64,000 nucleotides of DNA from Escherichia phage KEP3: the sequence record PP047753; one strand, given 5' to 3'. Position 1 is the stretch's first letter, and every line of letters begins with the position of its first letter. The notes beneath the pieces were generated by a model that was not told the DNA's origin, did no database searches, and saw only the letters and a program-made list of their open reading frames with translations. The position numbers were made by a program, and so were the translations under genes. Shown one piece after another: positions 3,688 through 4,674 of this stretch.

Positions 3688-4473
3688 TTAGTTCTTTGCG
3701 TCTAAGAAGGTAACTTCTTGTGATGAGAAAATCTCCTCGATATCCTCATCAGTTCTTGCATAGATATAAGTATCTGCATCACTGCCAAATGTTACTGCAA
3801 TCCTGTGATTGCTCTTCGACAGGTGGGTAACTAGAGCGTTACTTAGAGACATCTTTTCAACCGGAGGGTTACTTTGATGTATCTTGCCTTTTCTTCGTCT
3901 GAAGAGGGTAACTGCATCATCAGTGAACGTTACTACACCTGCAAAGTATTCTGGTTCACAGTAGTTCTTCCAACCTGAGAGTAACTTGTGGTACAACTCT
4001 CCTTCGTAGACATATAGATAAACATCTACACTCTTCATCACCTGATTAATGATAACGGTGACGGCTTGAGGGTCTAGTCCACCGATACCTGCACCAATCA
4101 TAGGTAACCCAACTTTCTTCAACTGATTAACTTCACAGTACCTGTTAAGCTGTTTCAAAGATGATTCTAAAGCACTGTATCGGGCATCTTTACCAGTCTT
4201 AAGCTGAGTGTAAAGGTTAGCTATACGGCCTTGTTTTAAACGTGCTACAGAGAAATTACCTAGTAAGTTCTCACAGGGCTTGTGGCCTATGCCACCTGCA
4301 TACAGATAAACTTCTGTATCAGTCTCATATGCTTTTGGGTAAAGTTTAGAAATCTTGTCAGCGATACCTGCACCCATTAAATTCATACAGTTGCAACCGT
4401 GACCAATGACGTCAAACTTACCTTTATCAAATGCGGCAAAGATATCACCATTGATGATTTTTACAATACCCAT
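3688..4473 (-). CDS. macro-domain (ADP-ribose binding/hydrolase-like) protein with about 110 aa C-terminal extension
   Basis: N-terminal motifs GDIF..DVIGHGCNCMNLMGAGIA and later LPMIGAGIGGLD resemble the macro-domain signature (GDIT..NAAN..GGGV.. / G-x-Y-G); C-terminal part unassigned. Confidence 0.5.
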   Translation of the reverse strand: MGIVKIINGDIFAAFDKGKFDVIGHGCNCMNLMGAGIADKISKLYPKAYETDTEVYLYAGGIGHKPCENLLGNFSVARLKQGRIANLYTQLKTGKDARYSALESSLKQLNRYCEVNQLKKVGLPMIGAGIGGLDPQAVTVIINQVMKSVDVYLYVYEGELYHKLLSGWKNYCEPEYFAGVVTFTDDAVTLFRRRKGKIHQSNPPVEKMSLSNALVTHLSKSNHRIAVTFGSDADTYIYARTDEDIEEIFSSQEVTFLDAKN

Positions 4474-4674
4474 TTAACATCTCTCCCAAGATTCTTTATC
4501 TTCTGAAGGTTTTACACGCTGCCCTTCGTGGTCTACCCAGATGCACCCACAACCTTCACAGATTACTGGCATTGCATAGCCAGCTTTAAAGTCATCTTCA
4601 GTGATAAGACCCTTTAAGTCACCTGTATCACGTCCGAACATTTCGATAGCACAGTCTTTGCAGAAGTCAGCCAT
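4474..4674 (-). CDS. small Cys-rich (putative zinc-binding) protein, 66 aa
   Basis: CKDC ... CEGCGC cysteine pairs; stop codon abuts the macro-domain gene start (4473/4474), consistent with translational coupling. Confidence 0.5.
   Translation of the reverse strand: MADFCKDCAIEMFGRDTGDLKGLITEDDFKAGYAMPVICEGCGCIWVDHEGQRVKPSEDKESWERC

Follow-up and report, generated by a model that had tools for sequence, protein, structure and literature searches.

A Poa1p-like macro domain fused to an orphan C-terminal domain in Felixounavirus phages

Two counter-defence functions have been published for phage macro domain proteins of the Tk.4/Adpp type. In phage T4, tk.4 was the single hit of a transposon screen against DarTG2 and was renamed adfM; a clean tk.4 knockout rendered the phage sensitive to DarTG2, the evidence being genetic (10.1101/2025.11.20.689424). 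The name AdfM was given independently to PhiKZ gp104, which strips DarT2-installed ADP-ribose off DNA in vitro, and mutation N23A impaired this de-ADP-ribosylation (PMC13309987). The second function is that of Adpp, a Poa1p-like macro protein of Vibrio phage Gary, which converts ADPR-1''-phosphate, the product of the NAD+ phosphorylase defence aRES, to ADPR, from which NARP1 then rebuilds NAD+; an H24A mutant was built (supplementary table S4), and inactivation of Adpp abolishes the anti-aRES effect (10.64898/2026.01.28.702374). Carriage of Adpp was reported for 15% of NARP1 phages, and the published Adpp table covers only Vibrio, Pseudomonas and Acinetobacter phages (10.64898/2026.01.28.702374). 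NARP1 itself was discovered in Bas63, a Felixounavirus. In the bacterial enzyme SCO6735 (Streptomyces coelicolor; PDB 5E3B), Gln takes the place of the catalytic Lys, and the enzyme depends on this Gln to strip thymidine-linked ADP-ribose from DNA.

The window analyzed here, 64,000 nucleotides of Escherichia phage KEP3 (PP047753), comes from a Felixounavirus: the 2.6 kb spanning its macro locus are 99.4% identical to Escherichia phage vB_EcoM_DE17, and identity across this region is 92–94% for about 170 FelixO1-like phages. The macro gene is part of the early leftward gene array of the window (Table 1). Family phrog_335 ('phosphatase') covers its product end to end (E=4.5e-112), at least 80% of the protein is covered in 269 phage records, and relatives are labelled in GenBank as 'phosphatase', 'macro domain-containing protein' or 'hypothetical protein'. 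Scans around the gene yielded no terminator-like hairpin and no Rfam match, and matches to sigma-70 promoters were weak.

Table 1. Coordinates, in the window, of the macro locus and of the NARP1 pair.
Feature	Position	Strand	Remarks
261-aa macro+CTD gene	3688..4473	(-)	ORF list; stop codon 3688-3690
Macro domain, residues 1-156	4006..4473	(-)	Poa1p-like subfamily motifs
Orphan C-terminal domain (CTD), residues 157-261	3691..4005	(-)	
66-aa mini-protein, putative zinc-ribbon type (phrog_2210)	4474..4674	(-)	upstream of macro gene, abutting
Junction mini-protein/macro gene	4471..4487	(-)	GGGAGAG (SD-like, 4487-4481), TGT, TAA (4476-4474), ATG (4473-4471)
Adps (NARP1; PRPP-synthetase-like ADPR pyrophosphokinase)	14089..14988	(-)	Pfam Pribosyltran, Pribosyl_synth
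Namat (NARP1; Nampt-like nicotinamide ADPR-transferase)	12260..14041	(-)	Pfam NAPRTase, NAMPT_N

All motifs quoted in the original prediction were present in the window protein, and its assignment to the macro domain was borne out by a match to Pfam PF01661 above the gathering score (32.3 bits, cutoff 22; E=1e-7; profile positions 2–117 of 118) and by the presence of the three-layer alpha/beta/alpha macro fold. The motifs are H25-G-C-N28-C, G34-A-G36, N86-L-Y-T-Q90 and I126-G-A-G-I-G-G-L-D134; H25, N28, the GAG loop, NLYTQ and IGAGIGGLD were invariant in 19 of 19 full-length homologues. Replacement of the canonical NAAN by HGCNC had been singled out as an oddity, which it is not: HxCNC defines the Poa1p-like subfamily, reading HSCNC in yeast Poa1p (PDB 6LFQ), HGCNC in T4-type Tk.4 and HQCNC in Adpp, and NARP1-linked phage macro proteins carry HQCNC, HQANC or HGCNC. 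The catalytic Asn is retained, N28 being, as judged by motif spacing, the conserved catalytic-site Asn and the counterpart of PhiKZ AdfM N23. The window protein has the H-x-(C/A)-N-C motif before the GxG phosphate loop, as well as the Y-(T/G)-Q motif and the IGxG(I/L)xGG loop of Poa1p-like phage macros. Its residue Q90 aligns with the catalytic Lys of TARG1 (K84) and DarG (K80), a position held by Gln throughout the Poa1p-like phage family, T4 Tk.4 included. These phage proteins are usually single-domain and about 150–185 aa long, whereas the window protein has 261 aa, 105 of them in the CTD.

The best NCBIfam and PADLOC matches were to DarG (3e-12 and 4.7e-13, respectively). The NCBIfam DarG equivalog reached 46.5 bits (cutoff 250), its alignment being confined to model positions 12–149 of 338; the unmatched C-terminal half, the replacement of Lys80 by Gln90 and the lack of an annotated DarT-like neighbour set the protein apart from a full DarG. 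The top PDB sequence match was OARD1/TARG1, an O-acetyl-ADP-ribose deacetylase. This match would be in line with an enzyme acting on protein or RNA mono-ADP-ribosylated by host ART toxins, on sirtuin-type O-acetyl-ADP-ribose or on cyclic-ADPR-type Thoeris signals, and macrodomains are often promiscuous: TARG1 and SCO6735 process DNA and protein alike, and viral macrodomains are known both as ADPR-1P phosphatases and as de-MARylases. However, the TARG1 catalytic pair K84/D125 is absent from the window protein, where Q90 and G131 occupy the aligned positions, no member of the Poa1p-like phage clade is tied to such substrates, and no gene related to ARTs, sirtuins or Thoeris lies nearby, so that a substrate of this kind is unlikely. 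The suggestion in the original prediction that ADPR-derived signals might be degraded found no specific support.

In a neighbour-joining tree, the Lys-type proteins PhiKZ AdfM and TARG1 fell outside, and Tk.4, the Adpp proteins and the window protein formed one family. Support for placing the Ounavirinae clade nearer to either Tk.4 or Adpp was below 60%, and phylogeny was discarded as an arbiter between an AdfM-type and an Adpp-type function. The documented activities of the family, those of AdfM and Adpp, are likewise inseparable by sequence. The window protein looks like an active representative of the Tk.4(AdfM)/Adpp macro family to which a lineage-specific orphan domain has been added. Since the family has two published functions and no distinguishing sequence feature, the window protein lends itself well to testing if such enzymes are generalists.

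A tentative preference is given to an AdfM-type activity as the selected function of the macro+CTD enzyme. Three points place it first: the protein resembles Tk.4 more than Adpp, its nearest relatives lie in non-NARP1 contexts, and SCO6735 by analogy offers a chemical model for a Gln-type enzyme working as an AdfM. The DarG matches, the correspondence of N28 with PhiKZ AdfM N23, the DarTG2 sensitivity of the T4 tk.4 knockout and the alignment of Q90 with DarG K80 count in its favour as well. In line with this, T4-like phages keep Tk.4, and the T4 locus has no NARP1 gene; tk.4 of phage PP01 is 97.7% identical in nucleotides to that of a T4 derivative. The closest single-domain relatives of the window protein (P0020, P0024, P0025 and P0026) had no Adps or Namat gene within 5 kb in any of the four cases. 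Against an AdfM-type role, the only in vitro activity demonstrated in the Poa1p-like phage clade is the ADPR-1P phosphatase activity of Adpp (10.64898/2026.01.28.702374). A literature search returned no paper on the Felixounavirus macro protein, nor on Felixounavirus against DarTG2 or aRES.

From the fold, the family membership, the conserved catalytic residues, the genomic context and the single origin and restricted occurrence of the fusion described below, we infer a substrate, a countered defence system and a role for the CTD as follows. The enzyme would be a catalytically competent Poa1p-like phage macrodomain hydrolase of the family of T4 Tk.4/AdfM and Vibrio phage Adpp, produced from the early leftward gene array. 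It would bind ADP-ribose and position a water molecule by means of the His and Asn of HxCNC and the Gln of YTQ, and this water would cleave off any group on the ribose 1'' carbon. Acting on single-stranded phage DNA, it would strip from thymidines the ADP-ribose installed by host DarT2, and its removal would restore phage replication and packaging. ADPR-1''-phosphate is probably dephosphorylated at this active site too, the two roles being compatible. Fusion of the 105-residue CTD took place a single time, in an ancestor common to Ounavirinae-like phages, and the CTD would serve outside catalysis as a docking module for a partner, either a protein of the phage replisome or of NARP1, or a host defence protein.

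The NARP1-like pair announced in the original prediction is present in the window (Table 1). Its Adps is 38% identical to Adps of Vibrio phage Chester, and its Namat 37% identical to Chester Namat (E=2e-106). The pair is complete and orthologous to the Bas63 operon; Namat comprises 593 aa in the window versus 529 aa in phage Chester, with insertions at about residues 345–425. Both NARP1 genes are located 7.8 kb upstream of the macro gene and, like it, on the (-) strand, with about 15 genes between, including rIIA, rIIB, SLT (lytic transglycosylase), a PNKP-like gene and spanins. The macro gene therefore falls outside the location that defines Adpp, namely inside the Adps-Namat operon or at most two genes from it. 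The order Adps-Namat...rIIA-rIIB...PNKP...macro+CTD, and its spacing, recur in two further loci (L010 and L011) and in Erwinia phage Roscha1, at macro identities down to about 40%. This synteny represents a co-inherited core, and is consequently consistent with a link to NARP1 without being independent evidence of one. On a metagenomic phage contig (L018 1186-5492, encoding P0026), rIIA/rIIB-like genes are immediately followed by a single-domain Poa1p-like macro gene, and this in turn by a helicase gene, an order that recalls the rII...macro order of Ounavirinae.

These data bear on a second explanation, that the main job of the macro+CTD enzyme is to convert ADPR-1''-phosphate to ADPR and so to feed NARP1 7.8 kb upstream, providing 'NARP1-AP' in trans. 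The substrate would stem from RES-type NAD+ phosphorylases such as aRES, which is found in E. coli, Klebsiella, Enterobacter and Salmonella, and it may also come from the NARP1 intermediate ADPR-PP via ADPR-cyclic-phosphate; ADPR-cP has been detected during Bas63 infections. The window protein belongs to the Adpp family (29% identity) and shares with it the HxCNC, Y(T/G)Q and IGxG(I/L)xGG motifs, an Acinetobacter phage protein linked to NARP1 has exactly HGCNC and YTQ, and the residue mutated in the H24A form of Gary Adpp, made for the inactivation tests, corresponds to the invariant H25. Conversion of ADPR-1P to ADPR is performed by both purified Adpp and yeast Poa1p, and ADPR-1P is unusable by NARP1. 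NARP1 and macro+CTD genes lay on the same strand in each of the four lineages compared, all of them deeply diverged (the window, L010, L011 and Roscha1), yet this co-occurrence is that of one syntenic subfamily core inherited together. The survey that defined Adpp was confined to two genes on each side of NARP1, for which reason a gene such as that of the window would have been missed, and its list holds no Escherichia or Salmonella phage. By contrast, the macro gene stands outside the NARP1 operon, about 41% of myoviruses have macro domains irrespective of NARP1, the sequence is nearer to Tk.4 than to Adpp, and the nearest single-domain relatives show no NARP1 linkage. The CTD is left unexplained, because every listed Adpp is single-domain. 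An Adpp role in trans is accordingly held to be possible at a lower probability, a close second to the AdfM-type role, with which it may coexist. Either would agree with the ADP-ribose/NAD-centred counter-defence proposed originally, an idea favoured, by analogy, by the experiments on homologues (T4 Tk.4/AdfM against DarTG2; Vibrio phage Adpp with NARP1 against aRES); taken as a whole, that earlier interpretation has been upheld in part.

The C-terminal part of the protein, originally left unassigned, is indeed an orphan accessory domain. It is predicted to fold independently (pLDDT 79, pTM 0.71) into one helix, seven beta-strands and a C-terminal helix. Pfam gave no match to the CTD, whether of the window protein or of any homologue group, and a BFVD search with the CTD returned solely the same protein of phage SUSP2. 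When a profile of 16 CTDs was run against 1.84 billion representative proteins, the only genuine matches were macro+CTD proteins or fragments; large multi-stretch matches that would have placed the domain in other architectures (PQQ propellers, YDG repeats and retroelement ORFs) were rejected as spurious. The macro+CTD fusion is monophyletic, with 99% bootstrap in the neighbour-joining tree, and is distributed over Felixounavirus, Mooglevirus, Suspvirus, Kolesnikvirus and uncultured relatives. Mean pairwise identity was 30% for the CTD versus 58% for the macro domain, and was lower for the CTD in 170 of 171 pairs. The CTD has thus evolved at about double the rate of the macro domain, keeping only N170, P174, F177, G179, D232 and Y236. 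Its charge is inconsistent, with pI values spread without trend from 4.6 to 9.5; a basic nucleic-acid-binding tail was dismissed on these grounds, and in the absence of consistent positive charge a simple DNA-binding tail is unlikely. An aRad1-like inhibitor of aRES was also considered, and neither the CTD (hhalign probability 0.2%) nor the adjacent mini-protein showed similarity to it. Its putative role would be to dock the macro enzyme to a partner.

The fast evolution of the CTD would also fit an arms-race interface, as if the protein were a non-catalytic binder or sponge of ADP-ribose, or inhibited a host protein through its CTD in the way DarG partly does to DarT. Certain macro domains are pure readers, and a K80 mutant of Thermus aquaticus DarG still antagonises DarT. 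However, the catalytic-site residues important in relatives are all invariant in the 19 diverged homologues, and the CTD resembles neither the C-terminal half of DarG, which lies beyond the aligned model positions, nor aRad1, so that either variant is very unlikely. A bolder proposal, which we regard as unlikely, makes the macro+CTD protein a two-module counter-defence factor: the CTD would be a new fold binding either DarT2 or an aRES-type NADase ('erase and clamp') or Adps/Namat (a metabolon), and the macro domain would act both as an AdfM and as an unlinked Adpp. Were this true, Bas63-type phages would run NARP1-AP in trans and the '15%' figure would be a substantial underestimate.

The mini-protein encoded just upstream of the macro gene belongs to phrog_2210 (E=1.1e-40), a family found in 835 phage records, with T5, rV5-like phages and PaMx35 among them. 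Its invariant pattern, MADFCKxC...VICEGCG...VD.EG with four invariant Cys (CxxC...CxxC), suggests a zinc ribbon; no relative was found in the PDB. Within phrog_2210, identity is 47–73% across Escherichia and Pseudomonas myoviruses and siphoviruses, and 39% in a Stenotrophomonas siphovirus. Of the coupling to the macro gene that had been put forward, the abutment stands, the junction reading TGT-TAA-ATG with an SD-like GGGAGAG about 9 nt 5' of the macro ATG. A functional pairing of the two proteins was rejected. In T5 (L005 2501-2701) the mini-protein is ORF059, in the tRNA region and adjoining an HNH endonuclease gene; in rV5-like phages its gene adjoins a tail-fibre gene, and in PaMx35 (L013 1501-1737) it lies within a recombination module. 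No macro gene is its neighbour in any of these phages or in the Stenotrophomonas siphovirus and, conversely, the gene upstream of distant macro+CTD loci differs, belonging to phrog_4446 or to no family. Abutting or 1-nt-overlap junctions were also found in three other loci (L002, L003 and L004) irrespective of the upstream gene, and abutment or overlap of start and stop codons is the norm throughout the gene array of the window. The coupling is physically real and, as far as the evidence goes, without functional implication. Two genes upstream of macro+CTD, two of these loci (L003 3467-3823 and L004 3379-3687) have a gene for a protein of about 100–118 aa of phrog_4856 ('nucleoside triphosphate pyrophosphohydrolase'); the window counterparts in position, 4667..4900 and 4875..5240, belong to phrog_6082 and phrog_4453.

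Two kinds of repeats were observed in the window. The gap from the stop of the macro gene (3688) to the start of the next (-) gene (3164) contains four direct repeats, CTGCAC(A/G)(A/T)TY.(T/G)AAAATGA, at 3439, 3484, 3523 and 3596, preceded by a G-rich purine tract at 3378-3412. This repeat is absent elsewhere in the 64 kb, and none of 100 shuffles reached four matches. The region 3378-3629 gave no Rfam match and no terminator-like hairpin, and one relative annotates a 52-aa plus-strand ORF in it; the region might hold a binding-site array, a promoter cluster or a small RNA. A 27-nt element, GGGAAGGTTATTCCCTCTCCGTTGATG, is present in three copies when up to two mismatches are allowed (365-391, 1411-1437 and 3201-3227; none expected by chance), each copy 36–37 nt 5' of the ATG of a (-) gene (126..329, 1216..1374 and 2784..3164, respectively). 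A match to TTGACT-17-TAATAT is found at 3259-3231, just upstream of the third copy. Small early transcription units probably share this element as a promoter-proximal leader; spurious plus-strand ORFs starting MGKVIPSPLM also arise from it.

Neither the macro domain family nor its counter-defence logic is new, unlike the fused orphan domain and a possible unlinked Adpp in the prototype NARP1 phages. Felixounaviruses are common phages of E. coli and Salmonella in therapy and biocontrol use, with Bas63 serving as the NARP1 model phage. If the AdfM-type role holds, the whole subfamily is predicted to be DarTG2-resistant. If instead an Adpp role holds, as an additional or the sole one, Felixounavirus NARP1 would already be 'extended' and undefeated by aRES, and the pathway would be undercounted by surveys restricted to operon-linked macro genes. 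The orphan CTD offers a small, clean target for structure determination and for the search for a new protein-protein interface of the phage–host arms race.

Among the characterized relatives, T4 Tk.4 is matched at 34% identity and 83.6 bits over residues 3–160, with identical or nearly identical HGCNC, NLYTQ and IG(A/C)GI(G/A)GG motifs, and both genes lie in the early region of an enterobacterial myovirus. Tk.4 differs in being a single domain of 159 aa, to which the window protein adds the CTD, and in its gene being situated between vs and tk.3 (locus vs, regB, tk) at a locus free of NARP1 genes, whereas the window genome has NARP1. Chester/Gary Adpp is matched at 29% identity (E=7e-15, 56.6 bits), its essential H24 corresponding to H25, and the genomes share homologous Adps and Namat genes (37–38% identity); by contrast, Adpp consists of one 158-aa domain, its gene lies between those of Adps and Namat, and the window gene is distant from them and carries the CTD. 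DarG, PhiKZ AdfM and TARG1 are Lys-type (FPTK/ITKK) and the window protein Gln-type; the tree places all three outside the Poa1p-like clade, and the C-terminal half of DarG has no match in the CTD, nor is there a DarT partner. Yeast Poa1p is an ADP-ribose 1''-phosphate phosphatase whose motif is FTS rather than YTQ and which has a long insertion; this enzyme is eukaryotic, acts on a tRNA-splicing by-product and lacks the CTD. SCO6735, the Gln-type precedent, matches the window protein weakly in sequence (E=0.49) and is a bacterial regulator of antibiotic production, not phage-encoded and without a CTD.
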